Made by a program: the position numbers and the translations under genes
In this document: piece after piece, positions 11,981 through 63,974 of the stretch
Layout of the letters: each line of letters opens with the position of its first letter
Position numbering within the stretch: the stretch's first letter is position 1
Source of the DNA: Escherichia coli
Lineage (GTDB): Bacteria > Pseudomonadota > Gammaproteobacteria > Enterobacterales > Enterobacteriaceae
Length of the DNA stretch: 64,000 nucleotides
Direction: 5' to 3' (one strand)
Assembly: GCF_030384885.1 (NCBI RefSeq)
Contig: NZ_CP128613.1
Notes under the pieces: model-generated
The model's database searches: none
What the model was told of the DNA's origin: nothing
Seen by the model: only the letters and a program-made list of their open reading frames with translations

Positions 11981-13624
11981 TTAGCGAATGTTAATCAGCG
12001 CATCAAAAATCGCGTTTGCCGTCTGCAGAACCTGCGCATTCGCCAGGTAATACTGCTGAAAACGTTGCAGATTTCCGTACTCCTCGTCGAGATTGACACC
12101 AGAAATCGACTGCTGCTGATTGGAAAGCTGCGTCACCACATTACCTTGCGTGGTGCTACTGGTTTTCAACGTTGCGGTTTTATTACCGATATCACTCACT
12201 AACGAGGCATAAGCGTCGTTAAAGGATTTCGCACCGCCCACCGTTTTACTGTTACTTTGCAGATCCAGCAGGGCCTGACCGTTGCGGTTGTCGCTATCAC
12301 CCGCATCTTCTGCGCTCGCCATGGCGATTTTCGCTTCGTCGGTGATTAATACATCCATGTTGACGATGGCGTCACTTACCGGTTTCAGTGTGAAGCTGTC
12401 ATTAACGGCAGGCGTTCCTGTAAACGTCAACTCCAGACCATCAAATGCCACTTTACCGTTAGCATCCGGCGTCACCGTAAAAGTGGTATTGCTGGCAAGG
12501 CGGGTGACCTGCCACTGATTATTATCGAACGAGATTTTGTAATCTGTCGCCAGTACCGCGGAGGCATCGGTTACCGTGGCACCGATCGCAACGCTACCAT
12601 TGTTGTTAGTATTTTGCAGAACCGCGGGCTTACCGATAGCAAAGAAATCCTCCCCTTCTTTACCATTGGCATCATACCCCTTGTTATGTTGGGCATTGAA
12701 AGCCTCGGCAAATGCCAGCGCCAGTTGTCCGAGCGTATTACGCGTCTGGTCGAGATCCTGAGAACGAAATGTCAGAATACCGCCCAGTGACCCGGTATTC
12801 AGCAATTTCTCCGGGATCTCAAGATTGCCCGCAGTCCCATCAACATAAGCGACAGTCGTACGAGAAGGGTCGGCGCTGGAAGGAATTGCCGCAAGTTGCC
12901 GCGCCGTACTTCCCTGAACCAGTGAGTAGCCATTGGCCATCGTGATGTTATAAGTGCCACCATCCTGAACGCTGACTTCTACGCCAACAATCTGGTTTAA
13001 TTCGCTCACCAGTTGATCGCGTTGATCCAGCAGATTGTTAGGTGACGCCCCTGCCCCCACGCCTGTCAGGCGGGAGATCTGATCGTTCAGGCTGGCGATT
13101 TGTTTAGCGTAATTGTTGATCTGATCAACGCTGGCACCTATCGCGATATTGACCTGTTTGTCCTGGTCGCGCAGATATTGATCGGTGGTTTTAAACTGAT
13201 TCACCAACCCTTCTGATTTCCCAATCAGCGCCTGGCGCGCTGCCGGATCTTCCGCGTTACTCACCAGCGTTTGCAGGCTGGTGAAGAAATCCTGCATCTG
13301 TGTTGCCAGCGAAGAGGTACTGGTGGAGAGCATATTGTCGATTTTCGACATCTGCTCATAGCGGGCAGTCAGGCCGCTACTTTGCGTCTGAGCCGCACGT
13401 AACTGGTTGGTAATAAAAGCATCATACTCACGCTGCACACCGGAAACGTAGACACCATTGCCAACCCAGCCACCCGCGCCCAACGTGCTGTTGGCCTGCG
13501 CCATAATAGTGGTTTGGCGGGTATATCCGGCAACGTTATAGCTGGAGATATTATTACTTGCCGTATTTAACGCCGCCTGGGCCGCGTTCAGTCCGCTCAT
13601 GGCGTTATTGATCAAGCTGGACAT
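11981..13624 (-). CDS. flgK: flagellar hook-associated protein 1 FlgK
   Basis: 547-aa ORF MSSLINNAMSGLNAAQAALNTASNNISS... Confidence 0.95.
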   Translation of the reverse strand: MSSLINNAMSGLNAAQAALNTASNNISSYNVAGYTRQTTIMAQANSTLGAGGWVGNGVYVSGVQREYDAFITNQLRAAQTQSSGLTARYEQMSKIDNMLSTSTSSLATQMQDFFTSLQTLVSNAEDPAARQALIGKSEGLVNQFKTTDQYLRDQDKQVNIAIGASVDQINNYAKQIASLNDQISRLTGVGAGASPNNLLDQRDQLVSELNQIVGVEVSVQDGGTYNITMANGYSLVQGSTARQLAAIPSSADPSRTTVAYVDGTAGNLEIPEKLLNTGSLGGILTFRSQDLDQTRNTLGQLALAFAEAFNAQHNKGYDANGKEGEDFFAIGKPAVLQNTNNNGSVAIGATVTDASAVLATDYKISFDNNQWQVTRLASNTTFTVTPDANGKVAFDGLELTFTGTPAVNDSFTLKPVSDAIVNMDVLITDEAKIAMASAEDAGDSDNRNGQALLDLQSNSKTVGGAKSFNDAYASLVSDIGNKTATLKTSSTTQGNVVTQLSNQQQSISGVNLDEEYGNLQRFQQYYLANAQVLQTANAIFDALINIR

Positions 13625-17443: not shown

Positions 17444-18199
17444 TTAACTCATCGACAGCAGTTGGTTGGCACGGCCTGCGTTATCATCGACGCTGCTGAT
17501 CACCTTCATCTGCATTTCAAAACGCCGCGCGCTGGCAATCATGTCGCTCATTGCCGCAACGGCATTGACGTTACTGCCTTCCAGAACCCCCGACATCACA
17601 CGTAAGGTTGGATCTGCCTGCAGTACCGGCCCACGCGTAGCCTGGCTTTCTGCGCTTAAACGAAAAATGCCGTCGTCACCGCGCTGCACTTCGCTGCCCG
17701 TGGCTTTCACCAGCTTCAGACGCCCCACTGGCGCGACAGTATTTGCCGGATCGCCAGAATTCAGCGCCGAGATTGTGCCATCGGCAGCAACAGTGATTTC
17801 CGCCCCTTCCGGCACAGCAATTGGCCCCGCCTCGCCGATCACCGGATGCCCCTGAATTGTCAGTTGCCCGGTGGGATCAACCTGAATGCTGCCATTACGC
17901 GTATACCCTTCGCTGCCGTCATCGGTCTGCACGGCCAGCCAGCCATCCTGCTGCAACGCAACGTCCAGCGGGCGCGAGGTGTAATCCATCTTGCCGGGCG
18001 TCATGTCTGCACCCGGCGTTGACGCCGTTACCAGCGTGCGCGTAGGCAGTGAAAGCCCTTCCACCGGCACTGCGCGCAAGGCGTTTAACTGCGCGCGAAA
18101 ACCGGGCGTTGAGGCATTGGCCAGATTACTGGCGGTCACCGCCTGTTGATTCAGCGTCTGGCTGGCTGCCCCCATCGCGGTATAAATTGCGTGATCCAT
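17444..18199 (-). CDS. flgF: flagellar proximal rod protein FlgF
   Basis: 251-aa ORF MDHAIYTAMGAASQTLNQQAVTASNLANAST... Confidence 0.95.
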   Translation of the reverse strand: MDHAIYTAMGAASQTLNQQAVTASNLANASTPGFRAQLNALRAVPVEGLSLPTRTLVTASTPGADMTPGKMDYTSRPLDVALQQDGWLAVQTDDGSEGYTRNGSIQVDPTGQLTIQGHPVIGEAGPIAVPEGAEITVAADGTISALNSGDPANTVAPVGRLKLVKATGSEVQRGDDGIFRLSAESQATRGPVLQADPTLRVMSGVLEGSNVNAVAAMSDMIASARRFEMQMKVISSVDDNAGRANQLLSMS

Positions 18200-18218
18200 T
18201 GAGCTATCCCGTCAGCGA

Positions 18219-19424
18219 TTAGCGTAAGTTAACCAGCGTGTTGAGGATCTGGTCCTGGGTTTTGATGGTCTGGGCGTTAGACTGATAGTTACGCTGGGCA
18301 ACGATCATATTGACCAGTTCTTTACTGAGATCGACGTTGGACGCTTCCAGCGCACCGTTGGTCAGGGTGCCAAAGTTGCCCGTCCCGGCTGTCCCCAACA
18401 GCGCCACGCCAGAAGATTGCGTCGCAGACCAGACGTTGTCGCCTTCGGATGCCAGACCTTCGTTGTTGGCAAAGTTCGCCAGTACAATCTGCCCCAGCAG
18501 TTGGGTTTGTTCGTTGGAATAGTTGCCGACAACCGTACCGTCATCATTGATTTGATAACTCACCAGATCGCCCGGTTTGTAGCCGTTCTGGGTGGTTGCC
18601 ACAATGTTGTTAGCACCGGTATTTTGCTGCATGGAGTTGAGGAAGCTCAGGCTAAACGTGGCGGGATCTGCGCCGTTAATTGCGCCGGTGGTAATATCCT
18701 TTGTTGGATCTGAGGTCAGAACGCCATTGGCATTAAACACCAGCGTCGTTGCAGGGTTAGCTGTGCCTTTTGGATCACTGCTATCCAGGGTGTAAACATC
18801 CCAGTTATTATCCCCGGTCTTCACAAAATAAACGCTCATGTCATGAGCATTACCCTGACTATCGAAAACAGTCACCGAACCTTTTTTGTTATAGCTATCC
18901 GCATTGCTGGCATCAAATGCTTTAACAGAGGGAAGCGGATCACTGGAATTCAGGTTGATCTGCATCGATGCCGTGGTGGTAGTTTTCGCTGCCATCAGGG
19001 TATTCGGGATCGAAATATTGGTCGGATTCGCCCCTTGCTGAATAGTCGGCGGCGTACCGGTTGCCGGGTAACCTGTCAGCTGTAAACCTTGCATATTCAC
19101 CAGGTTACGATTTTCATCAAGCTTAAATTGTCCATTACGGCTGTAAAAAACCGAACCATTGCTGTCTACCAGACGGAAAAAACCATTCTGGCTTATAGCA
19201 ACGTCCAGACCTCGCCCAGTGTTGGTGGTCGTGCCATCGGTAAAGTCCTGAGTGATACCGGCAACTTTTACCCCCAGTCCCACTTTCGAACCGGCAAACA
19301 TATCGGCAAAAGAGGCCGTGCCTGATTTAAAGCCGTAGGTGGCGGAGTTGGCGATATTGTTGCCAATAACATCGAGGTTGGTGGCGGCAGCGTTTAATCC
19401 GCTAACCGCTTGAGAAAAGGCCAT
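18219..19424 (-). CDS. flgE: flagellar hook protein FlgE
   Basis: 401-aa ORF MAFSQAVSGLNAAATNLDVIGNNIANSATYGFK... Confidence 0.95.
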   Translation of the reverse strand: MAFSQAVSGLNAAATNLDVIGNNIANSATYGFKSGTASFADMFAGSKVGLGVKVAGITQDFTDGTTTNTGRGLDVAISQNGFFRLVDSNGSVFYSRNGQFKLDENRNLVNMQGLQLTGYPATGTPPTIQQGANPTNISIPNTLMAAKTTTTASMQINLNSSDPLPSVKAFDASNADSYNKKGSVTVFDSQGNAHDMSVYFVKTGDNNWDVYTLDSSDPKGTANPATTLVFNANGVLTSDPTKDITTGAINGADPATFSLSFLNSMQQNTGANNIVATTQNGYKPGDLVSYQINDDGTVVGNYSNEQTQLLGQIVLANFANNEGLASEGDNVWSATQSSGVALLGTAGTGNFGTLTNGALEASNVDLSKELVNMIVAQRNYQSNAQTIKTQDQILNTLVNLR

Positions 19425-19449
19425 GACTGACTCCTGAAATTTGAGGGCT

Positions 19450-20145
19450 TTAAATTATCTGCCGTACTTCGTCGAGGGTGGTGGTGCCGTAAGTGCCGAG
19501 ATCCAGCGTATTACCGTTGTTGCCGCGGATCACCCCCTGCACCAGAGCAAACTGCAGCGGCTGGGCAACCAGTTGTGTACCACCGCTACTGGCGCTAATC
19601 GCTACATTGTAAGAACCGTTCGGCGCAGTGCTGCCGTCAGTCAACGTACCGTCCCAGGTGAAACTGTGGACTCCGGCAGTCAGTTCACCGATATCAATGG
19701 TACGGACAACCGCGCCGTTTTTATCGGTGATGGTGGCCGTAACTTTGTCTGCCGCCTGCTGCAACTCAACACCAAACGGTGTGGTCGTGGTCACAGCCCC
19801 TTCTTCACTGCCGGTTCCGGCAAGAACTGTGGTGCCGGGGATCATCACACCGTGACCGATCAGGTTACTGGCCTGTAACGACTGGCTGTTATCAATCTGT
19901 CCGGAAATAGATCCGAGCGTGGTATTGAGTTTTTCAATCCCGCTGACCGTGCTGATTTGTGCCAATTGCGACGTCAGCTCGTTGTTTTCCATTGGATTGG
20001 TCGGGTCCTGGTTTTTCAGCTGCGCCACCAGCAAAGTCAGAAAACTGCTTTGTAAATCTGCGGCGTTGCTACCCGTGAGTGAGCTACTGCTGGTGGTGCT
20101 GACGCCGGTATTTGTCGGATCGGTGGTGGTTACCGCAATGGACAT
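19450..20145 (-). CDS. flgD: flagellar hook capping/scaffold protein FlgD
   Basis: 231-aa ORF MSIAVTTTDPTNTGV... Confidence 0.95.
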   Translation of the reverse strand: MSIAVTTTDPTNTGVSTTSSSSLTGSNAADLQSSFLTLLVAQLKNQDPTNPMENNELTSQLAQISTVSGIEKLNTTLGSISGQIDNSQSLQASNLIGHGVMIPGTTVLAGTGSEEGAVTTTTPFGVELQQAADKVTATITDKNGAVVRTIDIGELTAGVHSFTWDGTLTDGSTAPNGSYNVAISASSGGTQLVAQPLQFALVQGVIRGNNGNTLDLGTYGTTTLDEVRQII

Positions 20146-20156
20146 AGATTTCTCCT

Positions 20157-20561
20157 TTATTGACCAAGCGTAAGGGTTTTCAGCATCATGCTTTTCACCG
20201 TGTTGAGCACTTCAACATTGGCCTGATAGCTGCGTGATGCTGACATGGTGTTAACCATCTCCCCGACGACATCAACGTTTGGCATTTTCACGTAGCCCTT
20301 TGCATCCGCCAGCGGATTACCCGGTTCATAAACCAGTTTGTCCGGAGCCTGACTTTCTATAACATCGGCAACCTTTACGCCGCCTGTCGCAGCGCCTGGC
20401 GCAGCGTTCACCTGGAATACCACCTGTTTTGCCCGATATGGCTGTCCATCGGGACCGGTCACGCTATCAGCATTCGCCAGATTACTGGCCGCCACATTCA
20501 GGCGCTGGGACTGGGCAGTTAACGCCGACCCGGCGATATCAAAAATGTTCAGCAGTGCCAT
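20157..20561 (-). CDS. flgC: flagellar proximal rod protein FlgC
   Basis: 134-aa [36 protein letters not shown]... Confidence 0.95.
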
Positions 20562-20564
20562 CCG

Positions 20565-20981
20565 TTAATTTCCGCTCTGTAAAACGTTCATCATGCCTTT
20601 GATTTGCCCGCTCAACGCGCTAAGGCTCATCTGGTATTGCAGGCTGTTATCGGCAAACTGAGTGCGTTCGCGATCCATATCGACGGTATTACCGTCCAGC
20701 GAAGGCTGGTCCGGAATACGGTATTGCAGTTCTGCGGTAGGAGGCGTCAGCGCCTGCGCCGGAATGTGTTGCGTTGAGGTCATCGTCAGCGCAACCATGC
20801 TGGTTTCATCCCGTCCACGCTGCATGACCTTTTTAAGTTCACTGGCAAAATCGATATCGCGTGCCTGATAACCAGGGGTATCGGCATTGGCGATGTTTGC
20901 TGCCAGCACTTCCTGACGCTGGGCGCGCAGATTGAGCGCCTCTTGTTGAAAACGTAAGGCGGCGTCGAGCTTATCGAGCAT
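20565..20981 (-). CDS. flgB: flagellar proximal rod protein FlgB
   Basis: 138-aa [45 protein letters not shown]... Confidence 0.95.
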
Positions 20982-21135
20982 ATCTCCTCCGCAGGTATCA
21001 AAATTCTGCCATCAGCTTAAATGCCTTTACGCGCGCGTTATCGGCGGAATAAACGCAAAATGGGTCGCTATTTATGCCGTTGATGGTCATTGCGTACAGG
21101 TACAATTCACGTTGTAGAAATGGCTGGGAGCGAAA
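20982..21135. promoter_or_regulatory. divergent flgB / flgA class 2 flagellar promoter region (FlhDC-dependent)
   Basis: 154-bp gap between divergent flgB and flgA starts; known architecture of flagellar region I; individual sites not resolved by eye. Confidence 0.55.
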
Positions 21136-21795
21136 ATGCTGACAATAAAACGTAGCGTGGCGATCATTGCGATACTGTTCAGTCCGTTAAGTGCGGCGAG
21201 CAATCTCACATCGCAGTTACAAACCTTTTTTAGCGCCCAGCTCGCGGGAGTAAGTGATGAGGTTCGTGTTTCTATTCGTACATCGCCCCATCTACTTCCG
21301 CCGTGCGAGCAACCACTGCTTTCGATAAGCAATAATTCCCGCCAGTGGGGAAATGTGAATGTGCTGGCACGCTGCGGTAACGACAAACGATATTTGCAAG
21401 TCAATGTACAGGCCACAGGAAATTATGTGGTTGCCGCGATGCCCATTGTGCGGGGAGGAAAGCTGGAAGCTGGCAATGTAAAACTGAAACGCGGACGACT
21501 GGACACCTTGCCGCCGCGTACTGTGTTGGATATCAATCAACTTATTGATGCCGTTAGCCTGCGCGATCTATCACTCGAACAGCCTATCCAATTAACCCAG
21601 TTGCGCCAGGCCTGGCGTGTAAAAGCGGGACAACGCGTCAACGTGATCGCCAACGGTGATGGATTTAGCGCCAACGCTGAAGGTCAGGCGTTGAACAATG
21701 CTGCCGTCGCACAGAATGCACGGGTGCGGATGGTATCGGGGCAAGTGATCAGTGGCGTTGTAGATGCAGATGGGAATATTCTTATAAACCTGTAA
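21136..21795 (+). CDS. flgA: flagellar P-ring assembly chaperone FlgA
   Basis: 219-aa ORF with signal peptide, divergent from flgB. Confidence 0.9.
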   Translation: MLTIKRSVAIIAILFSPLSAASNLTSQLQTFFSAQLAGVSDEVRVSIRTSPHLLPPCEQPLLSISNNSRQWGNVNVLARCGNDKRYLQVNVQATGNYVVAAMPIVRGGKLEAGNVKLKRGRLDTLPPRTVLDINQLIDAVSLRDLSLEQPIQLTQLRQAWRVKAGQRVNVIANGDGFSANAEGQALNNAAVAQNARVRMVSGQVISGVVDADGNILINL

Positions 21796-21800
21796 CCTGT

Positions 21801-21827
21801 TAAAGATTACCCGACCCATGCCGATAA
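21801..21827 (+). promoter_or_regulatory. sigma28 class 3 promoter for flgMN
   Basis: TAAAGATT-N11-GCCGATAA starting just after the flgA stop and about 45 nt upstream of the flgM ATG. Confidence 0.75.
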
Positions 21828-21870
21828 ATAAGCAACACATGATAAAAGCGCCCTCAATGAGGAATAAACC

Positions 21871-22164
21871 ATGAGTATTGACCGCACTTCACCTCTGAAG
21901 CCCGTAAGCACCGTTCAACCGCGTGAAACCACTGACGCGCCGGTAACGAATACCCGGGCGGCAAAAACAACCGCCGCCACCAGCACCAGTGTGACGTTAA
22001 GCGACGCGCAAGCAAAACTAATGCAACCCGGCAGCAGTGATATCAATCTTGAACGTGTCGAAGCGTTAAAACTGGCGATTCGTAACGGTGAACTAAAAAT
22101 GGACACTGGCAAAATTGCCGATGCGCTAATCAACGAAGCGCAGCAAGACTTGCAGAGTAACTGA
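21871..22164 (+). CDS. flgM: anti-sigma28 factor FlgM
   Basis: 97-aa [28 protein letters not shown]... Confidence 0.95.
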
Positions 22165-22168
22165 TCGT

Positions 22169-22585
22169 ATGACGCGTCTTGCAGAGATCCTCGACCAGAT
22201 GTCCGCAGTGCTTAACGATCTCAAAACGGTAATGGATCAAGAGCAGCAACATCTCTCAATGGGGCAGATCAACGGCAGCCAGTTGCAATGGATTACAGAA
22301 CAAAAAAGCTCACTGCTGGCGACGTTGGATTACCTCGAACAGTTACGCAGAAAAGAACCCAATGCAGAAAATAGCGTTGATATTAGTCAACGTTGGCAGG
22401 AAATTACGGTGCAAACTCAGCAACTACGTCAAATGAATCAACATAATGGCTGGTTACTGGAAGGACAGATTGAGCGCAATCAACAGGCGCTGGAAATGTT
22501 AAAACCGCATCAGGAACCGACGCTGTACGGGGCGAACGGTCAGACATCAATACCCCATCGCGGCAGTAAAAAGATTTCGATCTGA
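22169..22585 (+). CDS. flgN: FlgK/FlgL export chaperone FlgN
   Basis: 138-aa ORF MTRLAEILDQMSAVLNDLKTVMDQEQQHL... Confidence 0.95.
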   Translation: MTRLAEILDQMSAVLNDLKTVMDQEQQHLSMGQINGSQLQWITEQKSSLLATLDYLEQLRRKEPNAENSVDISQRWQEITVQTQQLRQMNQHNGWLLEGQIERNQQALEMLKPHQEPTLYGANGQTSIPHRGSKKISI

Positions 22586-22592
22586 AGATTAT

Positions 22593-22618
22593 TTCCGGCC
22601 TGCAGTGCAGGCCGGAAT
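22593..22618. terminator. bidirectional terminator hairpin between convergent flgN and murJ
   Basis: Near-perfect palindrome TTCCGGCCTGCAGTGCAGGCCGGAA flanked by A/T runs. Confidence 0.65.
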
Positions 22619-22624
22619 GCATTG

Positions 22625-24247
<1,623 letters not shown>

Positions 24248-47099: not shown

Positions 47100-47555
47100 T
47101 TAGTACTGATGAGCGGTCGCGTTGTTGCCAAAACCAACCTGAGTAACGTTTACGCTAGAGTTAGATGCAGTTTGATCAACTGCAGCACCGTTACCACCAC
47201 CAAACTGTTTAACAGTCATTTCAGAGTTTTTACCGTTCCACTGATCAAGAGTGGCACTGTTACCGAAGCCACGTTGGGTCAGATCGATTGAGCTGTCATC
47301 AGAGCCCTGACCAACATCTGCACCGTTACCGCCACCGTGCTGGGTAATCGTCAAGTCAGAGTTACGAGCATCAGTTTGCAGAGCAAGTGCAGAGTTACCA
47401 CCACCGTACTGGTAAATATTCAGCTCTGAATTTGGGCCGCTATTATTACCGCCACCGCCATGGTGACCACCACCGCCATACTGAGGAATAGAACCTGCCA
47501 GAGCGCTACCAGAGAATACGATTGCTGCAATTGCTGCTACTTTTAAAAGTTTCAT
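47100..47555 (-). CDS. csgA: major curlin subunit CsgA
   Basis: 151-aa ORF with signal peptide and five imperfect Gln/Asn/Gly-rich repeats. Confidence 0.97.
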   Translation of the reverse strand: MKLLKVAAIAAIVFSGSALAGSIPQYGGGGHHGGGGNNSGPNSELNIYQYGGGNSALALQTDARNSDLTITQHGGGNGADVGQGSDDSSIDLTQRGFGNSATLDQWNGKNSEMTVKQFGGGNGAAVDQTASNSSVNVTQVGFGNNATAHQY

Positions 47556-54167: not shown

Positions 54168-54338
54168 CTACAAAGGCCACCAGCATAACAAATCCGTGGT
54201 CGGTGGCAAAAAAAGCAGATTTCGCTTATTAAAACTGCATATTGATTGAAGTTTGAATAAACGCGCGATTTTTTAAAAAAGTTTGTTGACCTCAGGTCAT
54301 GATTTCCCTAAATTAGCGCCCGTTCCAGCAAGACAGGA

Positions 54339-54426
54339 ACGACAATTTGGTGAGGTGTCCGAGTGGCTGAAGGAGCACGCCTGGAAAGTGTGTATACGGC
54401 AACGTATCGGGGGTTCGAATCCCCCC
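54339..54426 (+). tRNA. serX: tRNA-Ser (anticodon GGA)
   Basis: GGTGAGGTGTCCGAGTGGCTGAAGGAGCACGCCTGGAAAGTGTGTATACGGCAACGTATCGGGGGTTCGAATCCCCCCCTCACCGCCA: acceptor stem, long variable arm, GGTTCGAATCC T-loop and encoded CCA. Confidence 0.92.
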
Positions 54427-54527
54427 CTCACCGCCATCTTTAAAGAAGAGCTCGTACGAAAGTACGGGCTTTTTTTTCGTATATTGCACACACCGGGGGG
54501 ATGAGAAGCCCCGACAGGGGTTCGACA
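54408..54527 (+). repeat. direct repeat copy 1 (tRNA 3' end + terminator + about 70 bp)
   Basis: AATCCCCCCCTCACCGCCATCTTTAAAGAAGAGCTCGTACGAAAGTACGGGCTTTTTTTTCGTATATTGCACACACCGGGGGGATGAGAAGCCCCGACAGGGGTTCGACAACTGGCGACA. Confidence 0.9.
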
Positions 54528-54588
54528 ACTGGCGACAGCCAGTTGGACAGACCGTGAACGCAGTGAGCGGGCTGCCCGCAGGGCGAGC

Positions 54589-54707
54589 GAAGCGAGTCAA
54601 TCCCCCCCTCACCGCCATCTTTAAAGAAGAGCTCGTACGAAGGTACGGGCTTTTTTTTCGTATATTGCACACACCGGGGGATGAAAAGCCCCGACCGGGG
54701 TTCGACA
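54589..54707 (+). repeat. direct repeat copy 2 (about 96% identical to copy 1, 61-bp spacer between copies)
   Basis: Same sequence as copy 1 with four differences (GAAAGT to GAAGGT, one G fewer in the G-run, GAGAAG to GAAAAG, GACAGG to GACCGG). Confidence 0.9.
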
Positions 54708-54720
54708 ACTGGCGACAAAC

Positions 54721-56088
54721 TCAATCATCATCCTTGCAGTTGATAAGAATTTCTGCCTCTTTTACAACTATCTTATTACGTCCGGTTTCTTTCGCTTCAT
54801 ATAGTGCATTATCAGCCATTCGATAGATTTCATTCGGATTTAACGCACTTCCCTGAGTCACCACAGCGCCAATGCTAATCGTCACTTTTTGCGGTATGGC
54901 GTATTCAGGATTATCGCCTGTCAAACGCTCTACATTTGCCCTTATCCTTTCGGCTAAAACTTTCGCGCTTTCAGTATCGGTCTCCGTCAGCAAGACGCCA
55001 AACTCTTCGCCGCCAACGCGTGCTAAAAGGTCATTTGGTCGTATGCTTTTCCCAATGATGCTCACCACTGTTTTTATCACCTGATCGCCAACCGGATGCC
55101 CCCACGTATCGTTAACTTTTTTAAAGTGATCGATATCCATAATCATGACACAATAAGACGTTTTTTGGGCTGATGCTGATTGAGCCTTCAGTTCATTGAA
55201 AAAATAATTCCTGTTAAATATATTAGTTAATGGATCGCGATGGGCAATGTTCTTTGTTACTCGTAGCGCACTGAAAATATGGCACATAAATATTACCATA
55301 ACGGTTAATTTACTGACTACTTCAATAGTGCGGCTAATATACCAAGTGGACACACTATACCTGCTCATAAATAACAGAGAGATATTATACAGCACGGCAC
55401 AGAAAGCAATCACTGATACTCCATTCCAGATATCACAGCGTAAACCATTAAAGTATAGATTAACCAAAAGCAAGATTAACCACATGAAAATCATTATGGT
55501 AACATATGAGGTTTTCCAGACTACCTGACCATTTTCATTTGTTAACTCGGCAATATGTAAACTGTAGTCATCATAATGACTACTTAGCATGTGAGCAACT
55601 GCCGCCCCCCCAAAAATAAAAAATAGACTTATACACAATGTCATTTTTTTGGAAAAAAAACAGCGTTTCTTATTGTTTTCACTAACTTTATTCACCAGCG
55701 CTAGCAATATTAACATGCACAAACTCATCTGACGAAACAAATAATAAATTGCAATATCATTTTGTACAACGCTGCTTATCAAATGCCCCTCAATAAATTG
55801 CTGAATGATAATGACAGTTTTAACAAAGTAAATCAAACAACTCAGAAACGCTAAACTAAGTATGCAGTTTGAAAATTGGACACGATCATAAATGAAATAC
55901 AATTGCATGAAAATAAATGCAACGGTATCGATAAAAAATAAAGCAATCATAACCATTAGATAGGTTGATCGTGGAACAACCTCCTCAACGGTTGGCTGAT
56001 TAAACCAACTATTTACCAAAACGAATGCAAGCCCAAACAATAAGCTCACCAATACAGTACTACTAATTCCCAAATAGTCTTTTTCCAT
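54721..56088 (-). CDS. dgcT: diguanylate cyclase DgcT (YcdT), membrane MASE-type sensor + GGDEF
   Basis: ORF 54721..56178 (485 aa) with multi-TM N-terminal region and C-terminal GGEEF motif (RVGGEEFGVLL); start placed at internal MEKDYL. Confidence 0.85.
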   Translation of the reverse strand: MEKDYLGISSTVLVSLLFGLAFVLVNSWFNQPTVEEVVPRSTYLMVMIALFFIDTVAFIFMQLYFIYDRVQFSNCILSLAFLSCLIYFVKTVIIIQQFIEGHLISSVVQNDIAIYYLFRQMSLCMLILLALVNKVSENNKKRCFFSKKMTLCISLFFIFGGAAVAHMLSSHYDDYSLHIAELTNENGQVVWKTSYVTIMIFMWLILLLVNLYFNGLRCDIWNGVSVIAFCAVLYNISLLFMSRYSVSTWYISRTIEVVSKLTVMVIFMCHIFSALRVTKNIAHRDPLTNIFNRNYFFNELKAQSASAQKTSYCVMIMDIDHFKKVNDTWGHPVGDQVIKTVVSIIGKSIRPNDLLARVGGEEFGVLLTETDTESAKVLAERIRANVERLTGDNPEYAIPQKVTISIGAVVTQGSALNPNEIYRMADNALYEAKETGRNKIVVKEAEILINCKDDD

Positions 56089-56439
56089 AAAGCTACACCA
56101 ATCTGTAGGTTGTAGATCCCTTTCTGTCACTAATAGATATAAGAACTGTACTGTTGTCAATATAAAAATCCACCACAAACAATACCAATGATGATAGTTG
56201 CAGACCGCAATTATTATTACCTTAGTGCTTTATACATTCTTCGCGACAAGACAGGCTTGCAAATACATATAAATGGTTATAAGGAAATCCTTATAAAACA
56301 TTAATTCATAGATATATTAGGAATAACAATTGAATCCGTGAGTACAGTAACGCTGCATTTCATCAGGACTTTCGAAAAATCCGATATCATGCATCGGAAT
56401 TTACTGATTTAATTATTTTAATCCTAATTTATTTTGAAA

Positions 56440-56676
56440 AAGGCATTGGGATTTATGCCGTATTCCTGAAGTTCCTCATCATTGGAATGGATTTTCGGGC
56501 GAGAAAAGGATTTTATATGGATACTCTACTCATCATTTCTTCTTCTCATCATCAACAATTCACGTCTCTCTTCCGCGTTTAATAACGGATTATGATGTGC
56601 AAAAAAATATCTTTCGTTTCAGTTACCTGTAATTAGATACAGAGAGAGATTTTGGCAATACATGGAGTAATACAGG
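56440..56676 (+). promoter_or_regulatory. pgaA: pgaA long 5' leader (CsrA-regulated in K-12); 5' boundary approximate
   Basis: About 590-bp gap between divergent dgcT and pgaA; several GGA motifs including ACAGGATGT directly over the pgaA start codon. Confidence 0.55.
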
Positions 56677-59100
56677 ATGTATTCAAGTAGCAGAAAAAGG
56701 TGCCCGAAAACCAAATGGGCTTTGAAAATTCTTACTGCCGCATTTTTAGCAGCGAGTCCCGCGGCGAAGAGTGCTGTTAATAATGCCTATGATGCATTGA
56801 TTATCGAAGCTCGCAAGGGAAATACTCAGCCAGCTTTGTTATGGTTTGCACAAAAATCAGCACTCAGTAATAACCAAATTGCTGACTGGTTACAGATTGC
56901 CTTATGGGCCGGGCAAGATAAACAGGTTATTACCGTTTACAACCGCTACCGTCATCAGCAATTACCAGCGCGTGGTTATGCAGCTGTCGCCGTCGCTTAT
57001 CGTAACCTGCAACAATGGCAAAACTCGCTTACACTGTGGCAAAAGGCACTCTCTCTGGAGTCGCAAAATAAGGATTATCAACGGGGACAAATTTTAACCC
57101 TGGCAGATGCGGGTCACTATGATTCTGCGCTGGTTAAACTTAAGCAGCTTAACTCTGGAGCACCGGACAAAGCTAATTTACTCGCAGAAGCCTATATCTA
57201 TAAACTGGCGGGGCGGCATGAGGATGAATTACGGGCGATGACAGGGTCATTACCTGAAAATGCCTTAACGCAACAATATCCCACAGAATACGTGCAGGCA
57301 TTACGGAATAATCAACTTGCTGCCGCGATTGACGATGCCAATTTAACGCCAGATATTTGCGCTGATATTCATGCCGAACTGGTCAGACTGTCGTTTATGC
57401 CTACGCGCAGTGAAAGTGAACGTTATGCCATTGCCGATCGCGCCCTCGCCCAATACGCTGCATTAGAAATTCTGTGGCATGATAACCCTGACCGCACTGC
57501 CCAGTACCAGCGTATTCAGGTTGATCATCTTGGCGCGTTATTAACTCGCGATCGTTATAAAGACGTTATTTCTCACTATCAGCGTTTAAAAAAGACGGGG
57601 CAAATTATTCCGCCCTGGGCGCAATATTGGGTTGCGTCGGCTTATCTCAAAGAACATCAGCCAAAAAAAGCACAGTCAATAATGACAGAGCTCTTTTATC
57701 ACAAGGAGACCATTGCCCCGGATTTATCCGATGAAGAACTTGCGGATCTCTTTTACAGCCACCTGGAGAGTGAAAATTATCCCGGCGCGCTAACTGTCAC
57801 CCAACATACCATTAATACTTCGCCGCCTTTCCTTCGGTTAATGGGCACGCCTACGAGCATCCCGAATGATACCTGGTTACAGGGGCATTCGTTTCTCTCA
57901 ACCGTAGCAAAATATAGTAATGATCTTCCTCAGGCTGAAATGACAGCCAGAGAGCTTGCTTATAACGCACCAGGAAATCAGGGACTGCGCATTGATTACG
58001 CGAGTGTGTTACAAGCCCGCGGTTGGCCTCGTGCGGCAGAAAATGAATTAAAAAAAGCAGAAGTGATCGAGCCACGTAATATTAATCTGGAGGTTGAACA
58101 AGCCTGGACAGCATTAACGTTACAAGAATGGCAGCAGACAGCGGTCTTAACGCACGATATTGTCGAACGTGAACCGCAAGATCCCGGCGTTGTACGTTTA
58201 AAACGTGCGGTTGATGTACATAATCTTGCAGAGCTTCGTATCGCTGGTTCAACAGGAATTGATGCCGAAGGTCCGGATAGTGGCAAACATGATGTCGACT
58301 TAACCACCATCGTTTATTCACCACCGCTGAATGATAACTGGCGCGGTTTTGCTGGATTCGGTTATGCCGATGGACAATTTAGCGAAGGAAAAGGGATTAT
58401 TCGCGACTGGCTTGCGGGTGTTGAGTGGCGGTCACGTAATATCTGGCTTGAGGCGGAGTACACCGAACGCTTTTTCAATCATGAGCATAAACCCGGCGCG
58501 CGCCTGTCTGGCTGGTATGATTTTAATGATAACTGGCGTATTGGTTCGCAACTGGAACGCCTCTCTCACCGCGTTCCATTACGGGCAATGAAAAATGGTG
58601 TTACAGGCAACAGTGCACAGGCTTATGTTCGCTGGTATCAAAATGAGCGGCGTAAGTACGGTGTCTCTTGGGCTTTCACTGATTTTTCTGACAGTAATCA
58701 GCGTCATGAAGTCTCACTTGAGGGTCAGGAACGCATCTGGTCTTCACCATATTTGATTGTCGATATCCTCCCCAATCTGTATTACGAACAAAATACAGAA
58801 CACGACACCCCATACTACAACCCTATAAAAATGTTCGATATTGTTCCGGCATTTGAGGCAAGTCATTTGTTATGGCGAAGCTATGAAAATAGCTGGGAGC
58901 AAATCTTCAGCGCAGGTGTTGGTGCCTCCTGGCAAAAACATTATGGCACGGATGTCGTCACCCAACTCGGCTACGGGCAACGCATTAGCTGGAATGACGT
59001 GATTGATGCTGGCGCAACGCTACGCTGGGAAAAACGTCCTTATGACGGTGACAGAGAACACAACTTATACGTTGAATTCGATATGACATTCAGATTTTAA
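56677..59100 (+). CDS. pgaA: poly-beta-1,6-N-acetylglucosamine export porin PgaA
   Basis: 807-aa ORF with signal peptide, TPR-like N-terminal half and beta-barrel C-terminus. Confidence 0.95.
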   Translation: MYSSSRKRCPKTKWALKILTAAFLAASPAAKSAVNNAYDALIIEARKGNTQPALLWFAQKSALSNNQIADWLQIALWAGQDKQVITVYNRYRHQQLPARGYAAVAVAYRNLQQWQNSLTLWQKALSLESQNKDYQRGQILTLADAGHYDSALVKLKQLNSGAPDKANLLAEAYIYKLAGRHEDELRAMTGSLPENALTQQYPTEYVQALRNNQLAAAIDDANLTPDICADIHAELVRLSFMPTRSESERYAIADRALAQYAALEILWHDNPDRTAQYQRIQVDHLGALLTRDRYKDVISHYQRLKKTGQIIPPWAQYWVASAYLKEHQPKKAQSIMTELFYHKETIAPDLSDEELADLFYSHLESENYPGALTVTQHTINTSPPFLRLMGTPTSIPNDTWLQGHSFLSTVAKYSNDLPQAEMTARELAYNAPGNQGLRIDYASVLQARGWPRAAENELKKAEVIEPRNINLEVEQAWTALTLQEWQQTAVLTHDIVEREPQDPGVVRLKRAVDVHNLAELRIAGSTGIDAEGPDSGKHDVDLTTIVYSPPLNDNWRGFAGFGYADGQFSEGKGIIRDWLAGVEWRSRNIWLEAEYTERFFNHEHKPGARLSGWYDFNDNWRIGSQLERLSHRVPLRAMKNGVTGNSAQAYVRWYQNERRKYGVSWAFTDFSDSNQRHEVSLEGQERIWSSPYLIVDILPNLYYEQNTEHDTPYYNPIKMFDIVPAFEASHLLWRSYENSWEQIFSAGVGASWQKHYGTDVVTQLGYGQRISWNDVIDAGATLRWEKRPYDGDREHNLYVEFDMTFRF

Positions 59101-59108
59101 GGATAAAT

Positions 59109-61127
59109 ATGTTACGTAATGGAAATAAATATCTCCTGATGCTGGTGAGTATAATTATGCTCACTGCGTGCATTAGCCAGTCAAGAACATCATTTATACC
59201 GCCACAGGATCGCGAATCTTTACTCGCCGAGCAACCGTGGCCGCATAATGGTTTTGTGGCGATTTCATGGCATAACGTTGAAGACGAAGCTGCCGACCAG
59301 CGTTTTATGTCAGTGCGGACATCAGCACTGCGTGAACAATTTGCCTGGCTGCGCGAGAACGGTTATCAACCGGTCAGTATTGCTCAAATTCGTGAAGCAC
59401 ATCGAGGAGGAAAACCGCTACCGGAAAAAGCAGTAGTGCTGACTTTTGATGACGGCTACCAGAGTTTTTATACCCGCGTCTTCCCAATTCTTCAGGCCTT
59501 CCAGTGGCCTGCTGTATGGGCCCCCGTCGGCAGTTGGGTCGATACGCCAGCGGATGAACAAGTAAAATTTGGCGATGAGATGGTCGATCGAGAATATTTT
59601 GCCACGTGGCAACAAGTGCGAGAAGTTGCGCGTTCCCGGCTCGTTGAGGTCGCTTCTCATACATGGAATTCTCACTACGGTATTCAGGCTAATGCCACCG
59701 GCAGCTTATTGCCTGTATATGTAAATCGTGCATATTTTACTGACCACGCACGGTATGAAACCGCAGCAGAATACCGGGAAAGAATTCGTCTGGATGCTGT
59801 AAAAATGACGGAATACCTGCGTACAAAGGCTAAGGTAAATCCACACGTTTTTGTTTGGCCTTATGGTGAAGCGAATGGCATAGCGATAGAGGAATTAAAA
59901 AAACTCGGTTATGACATGTTCTTCACCCTTGAATCAGGTTTGGCAAATGCGTCACAATTGGATTCCATTCCGCGAGTATTAATCGCCAATAATCCCTCAT
60001 TAAAAGAGTTTGCCCAGCAAATTATTACCGTACAGGAAAAATCATCACAACGGGTAATGCATATCGATCTTGATTACGTTTATGACGAAAACCGCCAGCA
60101 AATGGATCGCAATATTGATGTGCTAATTCAGCGGGTGAAAGATATGCAAATATCAACCGTGTATTTGCAGGCATTTGCTGATCCCGATGGTGATGGGCTG
60201 GTCAAAGAGGTCTGGTTTCCAAATCGTTTGCTACCAATGAAAGCAGATATTTTTAGTCGGGTTGCCTGGCAATTACGTACCCGCTCAGGTGTAAACATCT
60301 ATGCGTGGATGCCGGTATTAAGCTGGGATTTAGATCCCACATTAACGCGAGTAAAATATTTACCAACAGGGGAGAAAAAAGCACAAATTCATCCTGAACA
60401 ATATCGCCGTCTATCTCCTTTTGATGACAGGGTCAGAGCACAAGTTGGCATGTTATATGAAGATCTTGCCGGACATGCTGCTTTTGATGGCATATTGTTC
60501 CACGATGATGCTTTGCTTTCAGATTATGAAGATGCCAGTGCACCGGCTATCACGGCTTATCAGCAAGCAGGCTTTAGCGGGAGTCTGAGCGAAATTCGAC
60601 AAAACCCGGAGCAATTTAAACAGTGGACCCGCTTTAAAAGTCGTGCGTTAACTGACTTCACTTTAGAACTTAGTGCGCGCGTAAAAGCCATTCGCGGTCC
60701 ACATGTTAAAACTGCACGAAATATTTTTGCACTTCCGGTAATACAACCTGAAAGTGAAGCCTGGTTTGCACAGAATTATGCTGATTTCCTAAAAAGCTAT
60801 GACTGGACCGCTATTATGGCTATGCCTTATATGGAAGGTGTCGCAGAAAAATCGGCTGACCAATGGTTAATACAATTGACCAATCAAATTAAAAACATCC
60901 CTCAGGCTAAAGACAAATCTATTTTAGAATTACAGGCACAAAACTGGCAGAAAAATGGTCAGCATCAGGCTATTTCTTCGCAACAACTCGCTCACTGGAT
61001 GAGCCTATTACAACTGAATGGAATGAAAAACTATGGTTATTATCCCGACAATTTTCTGCATAACCAACCTGAAATAGACGTTATTCGTCCTGAGTTTTCA
61101 ACAGCCTGGTATCCGAAAAATGATTAA
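59109..61127 (+). CDS. pgaB: PGA N-deacetylase lipoprotein PgaB
   Basis: 672-aa ORF with lipobox LTAC and polysaccharide deacetylase motif TFDDGY. Confidence 0.95.
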
Positions 61128-62445
61128 TCGCATCGTATCGTTTTTTATATTATGTCTGGTGTTATGCATACCCCTATGCGTAGCGTACTTTCACTCTGGT
61201 GAACTGATGATGAGGTTCGTTTTCTTCTGGCCGTTTTTTATGTCCATTATGTGGATTGTTGGCGGCGTCTATTTCTGGGTCTATCGTGAACGCCACTGGC
61301 CGTGGGGAGAAAACGCACCAGCTCCCCAGTTGAAAGATAATCCGTCTATCTCCATTATCATTCCCTGTTTTAATGAGGAGAAAAACGTTGAGGAAACCAT
61401 ACACGCCGCTTTAGCACAGCGTTATGAGAACATTGAAGTTATTGCCGTAAATGACGGTTCAACAGACAAAACCCGTGCCATCCTGGATCGCATGGCTGCA
61501 CAAATTCCCCACCTGCGGGTCATTCATCTGGCGCAAAACCAGGGGAAAGCCATTGCGCTTAAAACCGGAGCTGCCGCGGCGAAAAGTGAATATCTGGTGT
61601 GCATTGATGGCGATGCGTTATTAGACCGCGATGCGGCGGCATATATTGTGGAACCGATGTTGTACAACCCGCGTGTGGGTGCCGTAACCGGTAATCCTCG
61701 TATTCGAACACGTTCTACCCTGGTGGGTAAAATTCAGGTTGGCGAGTATTCCTCAATTATTGGTTTGATCAAGCGAACCCAGCGTATCTATGGAAACGTA
61801 TTTACCGTTTCTGGTGTTATTGCCGCATTTCGTCGCAGCGCCCTGGCAGAAGTGGGTTACTGGAGTGACGATATGATCACCGAAGATATTGATATTAGCT
61901 GGAAGCTGCAGTTGAATCAGTGGACGATTTTTTACGAGCCACGGGCGCTGTGCTGGATATTAATGCCTGAAACGTTAAAAGGGCTGTGGAAACAGCGCCT
62001 GCGCTGGGCTCAGGGCGGTGCAGAAGTATTCCTCAAAAATATGACAAGGCTATGGCGCAAAGAAAACTTTCGAATGTGGCCACTGTTTTTTGAATACTGT
62101 CTGACGACAATATGGGCCTTTACCTGCCTGGTCGGTTTCATTATTTACGCAGTCCAACTTGCAGGTGTACCGTTAAATATTGAATTGACACATATCGCTG
62201 CGACACATACTGCCGGAATATTACTGTGTACGTTATGTTTACTGCAATTTATTGTCAGCCTGATGATCGAGAATCGCTATGAGCATAATCTGACTTCATC
62301 GCTTTTCTGGATTATTTGGTTCCCGGTTATTTTCTGGATGCTGAGCCTGGCAACGACATTGGTATCATTTACACGAGTCATGTTGATGCCTAAAAAGCAA
62401 CGCGCCCGTTGGGTAAGTCCCGATCGAGGGATTCTGAGAGGTTAA
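61120..62445 (+). CDS. pgaC: PGA synthase glycosyltransferase PgaC (GT2)
   Basis: 441-aa ORF with GT2 motifs (DGSTD, QRLRW); overlaps pgaB 3' end by 8 nt. Confidence 0.95.
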
Positions 62446-62446
62446 T

Positions 62447-62860
62447 ATGAACAATTTAATTATTACGACCCGACAATCGCCAGTACGTTTAATGGTTGAT
62501 TATGTTGCCACAACCATCTTATGGACATTATTTGCTTTGTTCATATTCTTATTCACCATGGATCTGCTGACGGGTTATTACTGGCAAAGTGAGGCCAGAA
62601 GCCGACTTCAGTTCTATTTTTTGCTGGCAGTGGCGAATGCCGTCGTGTTAATTGTCTGGGCGCTGTACAATAAGCTGCGTTTTCAAAAACAGCAGCATCA
62701 TGCAGCCTACCAATATACGCCGCAAGAATATGCAGAGAGCTTAGCAATACCTGATGAGCTCTATCAGCAACTACAAAAAAGCCACAGGATGAGCGTACAC
62801 TTCACCAGCCAAGGGCAAATAAAAATGGTTGTTTCAGAAAAAGCGCTAGTCCGGGCATAA
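62447..62860 (+). CDS. pgaD: PGA synthase auxiliary protein PgaD
   Basis: 137-aa two-TM ORF starting 2 nt after the pgaC stop. Confidence 0.9.
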
Positions 62861-62909
62861 ACACCCAAAACAAAGCCCGGTTCGCCCGGGCTCTGCACCG
62901 ATAATACAC

Positions 62910-63974
62910 TTAACTGTATGCATGTAGCGTACGTTGGCAAAGTGCCGAACGTACGCAATCCTCTTTACCGAATCGGACGATCCCGACCATTTCATCCTCT
63001 TCGAAACGTTCCAGCGCGTCACTTAATCCGGAGCGCACGCCGCGAGGCAAATCGCATTGCGTGATATCACCGTTGACGATAACCGTCACGTTCTCCCCGA
63101 GGCGGGTTAAAAACATTTTCATTTGCGCGGCAGTCACATTCTGCGCCTCGTCAAGAATGACGACTGCATTTTCAAAGGTACGTCCACGCATATAGGCGAA
63201 CGGCGCAATTTCCACCTTCCCTATTTCCGGTCGCAGGCAGTACTGCATAAAGGAAGCCCCTAAGCGACGGACCAGCACGTCGTAGACCGGGCGAAAATAG
63301 GGAGCAAACTTTTCTGCGATATCACCAGGTAAGAAACCTAGATCTTCATCGGCTTGCAGAACTGGACGGGTGACAATAATCCTGTCGACATCCTTATGTA
63401 TCAGGGCCTCTGCCGCTTTTGCGGCACTGATCCAGGTTTTTCCGCACCCGGCTTCGCCGGTGGCGAATATCAGCTGCTTACTCTCAATAGCCTTCAGATA
63501 GTGCAATTGCGCTTCATTTCGCGCGAGGATGGGCGAGGTATCGCGACTGTCGCGGGCCATACCAATGGCTTCTACGCCGCTCATCTGCACAAGCGAGGTG
63601 ACCGATTCTTCTTCACGCTGCTTATGGCTGCGCGAATCCCGTCTCAGCACACGTTTTGCCTCGCGACGAGCTTTGATCACTGCTTTTTGTCTTCCCATGG
63701 AGAGCACCTTGAGTTGTTTGTATTCATCACACGCGCCGTTGGCAGCGCGATTATGCGCACGAACATCAGAGGGTTGGCTTCCTTGTAAGCCATAGTTTGC
63801 TGTTGGATAAAATGCCGAAAAACGGCTACGCACACCGTTTGCGGCGTCGGTAACACATGAAAAGTAAGGAAGAATTTGAAAATGCAAAGTGACGAGATGA
63901 CTACCGGAGGAGAAATCTCCGCGAGTGGTGGAGCGTTGCTTAACAAAACATTGTCCAGTACAGGACGTTACCAT
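62910..63974 (-). CDS. phoH: PhoH, phosphate-starvation-inducible ATPase
   Basis: 354-aa ORF with Walker A GEAGCGKT and PhoH-family C-terminal domain; convergent with pgaD. Confidence 0.9.
   Translation of the reverse strand: MVTSCTGQCFVKQRSTTRGDFSSGSHLVTLHFQILPYFSCVTDAANGVRSRFSAFYPTANYGLQGSQPSDVRAHNRAANGACDEYKQLKVLSMGRQKAVIKARREAKRVLRRDSRSHKQREEESVTSLVQMSGVEAIGMARDSRDTSPILARNEAQLHYLKAIESKQLIFATGEAGCGKTWISAAKAAEALIHKDVDRIIVTRPVLQADEDLGFLPGDIAEKFAPYFRPVYDVLVRRLGASFMQYCLRPEIGKVEIAPFAYMRGRTFENAVVILDEAQNVTAAQMKMFLTRLGENVTVIVNGDITQCDLPRGVRSGLSDALERFEEDEMVGIVRFGKEDCVRSALCQRTLHAYS

Follow-up and report, generated by a model that had tools for sequence, protein, structure and literature searches.

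The short serX–dgcT spacer of an Escherichia coli strain: a tRNA-linked repeat region and, very probably, the ancestral form of a junction altered in K-12

The DNA under analysis, hereafter the window, is a stretch of 64,000 nucleotides from Escherichia coli (contig NZ_CP128613.1 of assembly GCF_030384885.1), in which ARAGORN finds a single tRNA gene, the tRNA-Ser(GGA) gene serX. Convergent with serX is dgcT, or ycdT, with its stop codon at 54721, such that the spacer between the two spans positions 54437 to 54720, a length of 284 bp. An earlier note on this DNA had put the gap at about 290 bp with the stop at 54721, which is borne out by the measurement; of the span that it gave, 54427 to 54720, the end is right, although the start falls 10 nt within the tRNA. 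The spacer is overlapped by four program-listed ORFs, none of which has a Pfam match or is a plausible gene, in accord with the note's statement that it carries no transposase or membrane-protein ORF. The 3′-terminal 14 nt of serX, CCCCCTCACCGCCA (54423–54436), which form the core used by islands that integrate at serX, are intact. The features of the locus are collected in Table 1.

Table 1. Features in and around the serX–dgcT spacer, in window coordinates
Feature	Position	Strand	Basis
Promoter-like site 5′ of serX, TTGACC / 17-nt spacer / TAAATT	54286..54314	+	Consensus scan 9/12, pattern match only
serX, tRNA-Ser(GGA)	54349..54436	+	ARAGORN; Rfam tRNA model, 53.8 bits
Repeat unit 1, 181 bp, opening with the last 19 nt of serX, AATCCCCCCCTCACCGCCA	54418..54598	+	Repeat search; unit decomposition
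Predicted serX intrinsic terminator, 16-bp hairpin between A-run and T-run, readable both ways	54442..54477	both	Minimum-free-energy fold; - strand terminator-like site 54466-54453
RtT-like structured element, multi-branch fold closed by GGGGGGAU...AAUCCCCCC	54481..54617	+	Rfam RF00391, 41.7 bits, E 1.7e-6; fold; compensatory pairs
Repeat unit 2, partial, 119 bp (0.66 unit), ending GGTTCGACAACTGGCGACA, 3 bp short of the dgcT stop codon	54599..54717	+	Repeat search; unit decomposition
Second copy of the predicted bidirectional terminator	54623..54658	both	Repeat copy of 54442-54477; - strand terminator-like site 54647-54634
77 bp missing from K-12 (78 bp in strain HH97)	54679..54755	n/a	K-12 vs HH97 breakpoints; blastn of window vs K-12
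dgcT (ycdT), MASE4 + GGDEF diguanylate cyclase, 455 aa, with the probable ancestral tail KEAEILINCKDDD	54721..56088	-	ORF; Pfam; PGAP CDS in 2013C-4282; tail comparison

Repeat search and unit decomposition show the spacer to consist of 1.66 copies of a 181-bp tRNA-linked tandem repeat, both units lying on the + strand. The segments 54418–54537 and 54599–54717, which are 95–99% identical at an offset of 181 bp (180–181), establish as real and not due to chance the direct repeats that the earlier note had placed at 54408..54707. Each unit opens with the 19-nt 3′ end of serX, at 54418 and again at 54599, and the 62 nt between the two segments are noncoding, as judged by a Pfam check of their ORFs. 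Tandem Repeats Finder reported no repeat in the window, 1.66 copies being under its threshold. Across the genomes examined the unit count takes the values 0.44, 0.66, 1.66, 2.25, 2.44 and 3.44, a variation which we infer to have come from unequal recombination.

The repeat also provides the predicted transcriptional punctuation of the locus. The hairpin in the second copy is the first strong predicted terminator that transcripts of dgcT would encounter, and from the folds it would appear that the terminators of both serX and dgcT are supplied by hairpins of the repeat. Beyond the first hairpin lies the RtT-like element, in which the tRNA 3′ end, in its second copy, makes up the 3′ strand of the closing stem. 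Its score against RF00391 is below the gathering score of 45, and the orthologous serX units of K-12 (46.3 bits) and of locus L012 (46.9 bits) score slightly above it. Single-sequence folding of the unit gives -80.6 kcal/mol with z = -5.45. PGAP places the label 'RtT sRNA' at the equivalent spot in many genomes, that of strain 2013C-4282 among them. Since a strong predicted terminator separates serX from the structured part, co-transcription of an RtT-like RNA with serX is doubtful here.

Within DgcT, Pfam places MASE4 at residues 41–274 and GGDEF at residues 282–439. The longest ORF starts from a TTG at 56178 and encodes 485 aa, and PGAP and several 479-aa database entries choose other starts; the ATG start of the 455-aa form agrees with K-12 DgcT (the region concerned is window 56089–56178). 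The variant C-terminus to which the earlier note had drawn attention is real, the protein ending in NKIVVKEAEILINCKDDD in the window and in NKVVVRDVVNFCESP in K-12. The K-12 tail, which finishes RDVVNFCESP, is the only one that departs completely from the others, that of strain HH97 being a frameshifted version of the putative ancestral sequence; judged by these tails, the unusual C-terminus is that of K-12 and not that of the window. Together with its upstream region (54721–56764), dgcT is divergent, with 90.3% nucleotide identity to K-12 as against 98.0% for the adjacent ghrA, and there are at least five classes of dgcT allele. In the E. coli strains NT1N25 and CUVET18-1475, dgcT is 99.8% identical to that of L012 and ghrA, at 99.6%, is K-12-like, which points to a putative interspecies import of dgcT with a breakpoint at serX. 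Elsewhere in the window, csgA (47100–47555, - strand) has 92.3% nucleotide identity to K-12, and its protein differs from that of K-12 only in V22S, V23I and N31H, the variant residues of CsgA that the note had remarked upon; from this pattern the gene is, apparently, a divergent allele on which purifying selection is strong.

The window is collinear with MG1655 1152002–1086000 at 97.1% identity, and in the whole-window alignment, which the earlier note had proposed as its own check, the sole break is at serX–dgcT. In other words, this interval is the only structural difference in 64 kb, there being no other indel of more than 3 bp. By blastn, window positions 1–54717 align to K-12 down to 1097283 and positions 54764–62966 to 1094200–1086000. 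Stretches of the flg/rne part (window 8001–12000 and 18001–24000) have 95.2–96.2% identity to K-12 as against 97–99% elsewhere, and indels of 1–2 bp are clustered in flgE (window 18698–18722, approximately K-12 1133278–1133303). To strain 2013C-4282, isolated from human stool in the USA, the identity is ca 100% across 20 kb, and the DNA is indeed, as the note had suggested, that of a non-K-12 E. coli.

In MG1655 the dgcT–serX interval is 3330 bp as against 284 bp here, which disposes of the possibility, allowed for in the note, that K-12 has the same spacing. From the dgcT stop codon (1094234) this interval contains IS3D (1094245–1095502), the ymdE pseudogene, ycdU and extra repeats, as far as serX (1097565–1097652), which is the layout that the note had given. 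The segment is absent from the window, there being no alignment of K-12 1094210–1096960, with its IS3, ymdE and ycdU, anywhere in the 64 kb. K-12 has 3.44 repeat units as against 1.66 in the window.

Exact breakpoints come from comparing K-12 with HH97, a near-isogenic, insertion-free strain in which dgcT and ghrA each have 99.9% identity to their K-12 counterparts. In place of 78 bp of HH97, K-12 has 2751 bp (1094210–1096960). The window counterpart of those 78 bp (Table 1) consists of 39 nt from the distal side of the partial repeat unit, 3 nt of spacer and the final 35 nt of dgcT. On the left, K-12 breaks off after 80 nt of a repeat unit, directly after CACACACCGGG; on the right, the breakpoint falls inside dgcT, 32 nt ahead of the stop codon, with the loss of the last 11 sense codons and the stop. 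Read in the orientation of the window, the K-12-specific DNA is made up of 131 bp, ycdU, a 5′-truncated ymdE, IS3D and then 35 bp in which the tail of K-12 DgcT is now encoded. No 3-bp target duplication surrounds IS3D in K-12, TTT being on one side and GTG on the other. An O45:H2 strain (L011 5539–5722, against K-12 1095503) has 184 bp more of ymdE beside the shared IS3, and a target duplication is absent from both strains. The missing duplication and the graded truncation of ymdE are the pattern expected of IS3-adjacent deletions.

Taken together, the window very probably represents the ancestral, unoccupied serX–dgcT junction, with the 3′ repeat region of serX as its spacer, and K-12 a state derived from it by insertion and IS3 trimming. 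We infer this direction of change, in the first place, because K-12 is without the 78 bp, and no deletion in a K-12-like genome could bring these back. The flanks of IS3D just described, and the fact that only the K-12 tail of DgcT departs completely, speak for the same direction. In the second place, the junction, ...GGCGACA(G/A)A.T.A.TCATCATCC, and the DgcT tail, (K/T)EAE..(I/M)N.KDD(D/E), are common to five dgcT allele classes with mutual identities of 79–96% (those of the window, AR_0055, LR-31/EC2, NT1N25 and 1919D62). Both also occur in strains LR-31 and EC2, at the far ends of their IS-rich islands, on Salmonella plasmid-like contigs that carry pga-dgcT, and in L012, which is labelled E. 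coli but the ghrA of which is only 91.5% identical to that of E. coli, such that it belongs to a different Escherichia species-level lineage.

The outgroup sample for polarity consists of this one Escherichia locus. A DgcT scan of genome contigs gave L012 as the one full-length relative, the 26 other loci being unrelated GGDEF proteins. A search through protein homologues for a second Escherichia outgroup did not find one among L043 (a distant pga-dgcT without serX), L044 (an E. coli in which serX is disrupted), L045 (a short contig) and the Salmonella plasmid-like contigs. Since dgcT-pga moves between lineages, the junction could in principle have been spread by horizontal transfer and not by inheritance.

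The opposite direction, in which the short spacer would be a secondary deletion and the IS3-ymdE-ycdU segment of an ancestor would have been lost by IS3- or repeat-mediated recombination, is distinctly improbable and was rejected. Such a course does have some basis, in that adjacent deletions by IS3 do happen at this locus, the repeats are recombination substrates, and ycdU with a truncated ymdE is the commonest single configuration, being present in 2605 (48%) of the 5426 complete E. coli genomes on which all frequencies given here are based; but no deletion recreates the 78 bp, including the last 35 nt of dgcT, that is missing from K-12 types, an argument which by itself largely refutes it. 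Moreover, the identical junction in five deep allele classes and in an outgroup lineage speaks against a secondary loss, as does the window's lack of any trace of IS3, ymdE or ycdU. The earlier note was right that the segment is absent, but its framing of the difference as an absence here needs refining, K-12 being very probably the derived genome and the window having the ancestral empty site.

If K-12 is indeed derived, foreign DNA carrying ymdE and ycdU would have entered its ancestor 80 nt into a repeat unit, after which an IS3 copy would have trimmed the insert through adjacent deletions. These deletions would have removed the 5′ part of ymdE, the 78 bp of the junction and the last 11 sense codons and stop of dgcT, and the outcome would be the chimeric tail on K-12 DgcT. 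The number of repeat copies would have changed through unequal recombination.

That the flank of serX is a variable hotspot, as the earlier note had proposed, is supported both by the finding of at least six configurations and by the literature (PMC4951805, PMC3064760, PMC5635171). Goldstone et al. (2016) described genomic heterogeneity in the region pgaABCD-ycdT-insEF-ymdE-ycdU, which is bounded by phoH and ghrA and in which the presence of ymdE-ycdU is variable (PMC4951805); Bielaszewska et al. (2011) reported OI-48 of O157:H7 to be integrated at serX with 14-bp direct repeats (PMC3064760); and Cimdins et al. (2017) found strain differences in exactly the serX–dgcT interval (PMC5635171). Among the genomes compared here, islands lie at the serX point in KE51, where the island begins right after CACCGCCA, and in LR-31 and EC2. 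A further serX-integrated island is PAI-CFT073-serX. In KE51 the island (L040 9238–18237) contains, from the 3′ end of serX, cbtA/yeeU toxin-antitoxin, antirestriction, DUF4942, DUF932 and IrmA-family genes. The window, by comparison, has the make-up of an empty attachment site, with an intact tRNA, the 14-nt core and no island genes before dgcT.

Two further arrangements extend the range of what is found at this locus. In the K-12-like E. coli CP125919.1 (L044, ca 8700–9000), serX is truncated within its T-arm, reading GGCAACGTATCGGGG up to the break and TATATG beyond it; ARAGORN finds no tRNA in the serX–dgcT region, and the interval contains a GmrSD-type (type IV restriction) gene and an IS3 transposase. 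The hotspot is thus occupied by a defence gene, to the detriment of serX. In two Salmonella enterica contigs (L046 and L047, 5465–5545), pga-dgcT stands beside TraG_N, Rep3 and phage-integrase genes, and the probable ancestral DgcT tail is kept along with ca 75 nt of the serX repeat unit, ending at GCACTGTTGCAAA, which we take to resemble an IS26-type terminal inverted repeat. The pga-dgcT module looks as if it had been captured from an Escherichia chromosome; a PLSDB search gave no plasmid record with the whole module.

Given that serX is a proven integration site, the islands of which have the last 14 nt of the tRNA at either end (PMC3064760), that the KE51 island abuts the tRNA 3′ end exactly, and that the 19-nt motif recurs 181 bp further downstream, the duplicated tRNA 3′ end might instead be read as the attL and attR of a tiny degenerate element, or as the scar of an excised island, and not as part of a tandem repeat family. 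Against this, the duplication extends over ca 120 nt, where an integration core is 14–20 nt; the copies are head-to-tail with a fixed period of 181 bp, in numbers from 0.44 to 3.44; the DNA between them is noncoding; and both the sequence and the structure of the unit show homology to the 178-bp tyrT repeat, the two differing by compensatory changes that follow the tRNA concerned. A scar is accordingly very improbable, and this reading was rejected on the length and orientation of the duplication, its period and its homology to tyrT.

Turning to how widespread the arrangement is, serX is contiguous with dgcT through a single 0.66 unit and a 104-bp spacer in 1128 of the 5426 genomes (21%). This shorter form is far commoner than that of the window, which is therefore not the "minimal serX locus" that the earlier note had supposed. 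The repeat-to-dgcT junction of the AR_0055 allele type is found in 1398 genomes, both this count and that of 1128 having been obtained with queries built on the AR_0055 allele. A query with window 54650–54800 retrieves the window-type junction in 41 genomes, a number that misleadingly suggests rarity as megablast cannot cross the divergent dgcT 3′ ends of other alleles; of the 41, 16 are identical to the window and ca 14 have the junction at island ends and not beside serX. Overall, approximately one-fifth of sequenced E. coli, this strain included, would keep the original serX–dgcT junction, with the K-12-type, probably derived, state in about half. That the arrangement was created in assembly, by the collapse of a repeat or by a mis-join at the tRNA, can be set aside as having a negligible chance, for although 181-bp tandem repeats are collapsible in short-read assemblies, the identical arrangement, 100% across the junction, is present in 16 independent complete genomes, with related versions in 25 further genomes and the shorter version in more than 1100.

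As to the nature of the repeat, each serX unit resembles the 3′ half of a pseudo-tRNA, the T-loop of which is split by an insert of ca 75 nt, and its structured element has the look of a pseudo-T-arm. The units would evolve in concert with their cognate tRNA, the T-stem-like strands differing between serX and tyrT exactly as the tRNAs do. One of the units of L012 (8672–8778, - strand) is only 106 bp long, and in it the ca 75 nt between GGGGTTCG and AATCCCCCCC are precisely missing and a tRNA-like T-arm is restored; this fits a putative recombination between the unit's GGGGTTCGA and the T-arm of the tRNA itself. The dgcT-proximal half-unit is kept in every lineage examined, including the plasmid-like contig, and may act as the dgcT terminator. 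It is nevertheless unlikely that units of the serX type are maintained functional modules as opposed to the junk of slippage. Were they functional, one possible role would be to buffer the real tRNA gene at an island hotspot, the units acting as decoys or as secondary sites of attachment and recombination, and an alternative would be to give rise, by processing, to a small tRNA-linked RNA.

The serX–dgcT difference is, in summary, common, ordinary and already known in kind, and has little significance beyond correct annotation. In this regard, K-12 is best treated as the probable derived genome at serX–dgcT, its DgcT C-terminus and ymdE pseudogene being likely by-products of an IS3-trimmed insertion, and exact breakpoints are now given for a polymorphism which pangenome studies had described at the gene level only. 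Similarly, the 'RtT sRNA' annotated 3′ of serX is better described as a tRNA-linked repeat that contains a predicted terminator and is a distant relative only of the tyrT element.

Three known systems bear comparison with the locus. With the K-12 dgcT-IS3D-ymdE-ycdU-serX segment it shares both the site and the flanks (ghrA/ycdXYZ on one side and pga/phoH on the other), but it is without the 2751 bp, retains the 77–78 bp that K-12 lost and has 1.66 repeat units in place of 3.44. With the serX islands of the O157:H7 OI-48/SpLE1 type it shares the chromosomal site, the 14-nt core being intact in the tRNA and present as a second copy in the repeat, whereas the island, integrase and foreign genes are absent, making it an empty site.

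The third system is the tyrT RtT repeat (Rfam RF00391; rttR in K-12), of which the spacer is, on sequence and predicted fold, a serX-specific distant relative; a search of the literature on RtT at serX found nothing specific. Both consist of tandem units that directly follow the 3′ end of a tRNA gene and share its strand, those of tyrT opening with the last 19 nt of tRNA-Tyr, AATCCTTCCCCCACCACCA, at a period of 178 bp, and those of serX with AATCCCCCCCTCACCGCCA at 181 bp. The units have in common the segments GGGG..GGAUGAGAAGC...CGAC...GGUUCGA and ...GCGA(A/G)GCG...AAUCC, as well as a predicted fold in which compensatory changes in the closing stem and in an inner hairpin go with the T-stem of the cognate tRNA, GGGG/CCCC in serX corresponding to GAAG/CTTC in tyrT. 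Indeed, 6 of the 24 consensus pairs are changed on both sides with pairing kept between the serX and tyrT types, although these, being two deep clades, represent few independent events. The relationship is nevertheless distant, as RF00391 scores are 41.7–46.9 bits for serX units and 133–137 bits for tyrT units, and the serX repeat amounts here to only 1.66 copies. Moreover, the rtT RNA of the tyrT system is defined by its co-transcription with the tRNA, from the primary transcript of which it is released by processing, whereas each serX unit has, ahead of its structured part, a strong predicted intrinsic terminator of a kind that the tyrT units do not contain.
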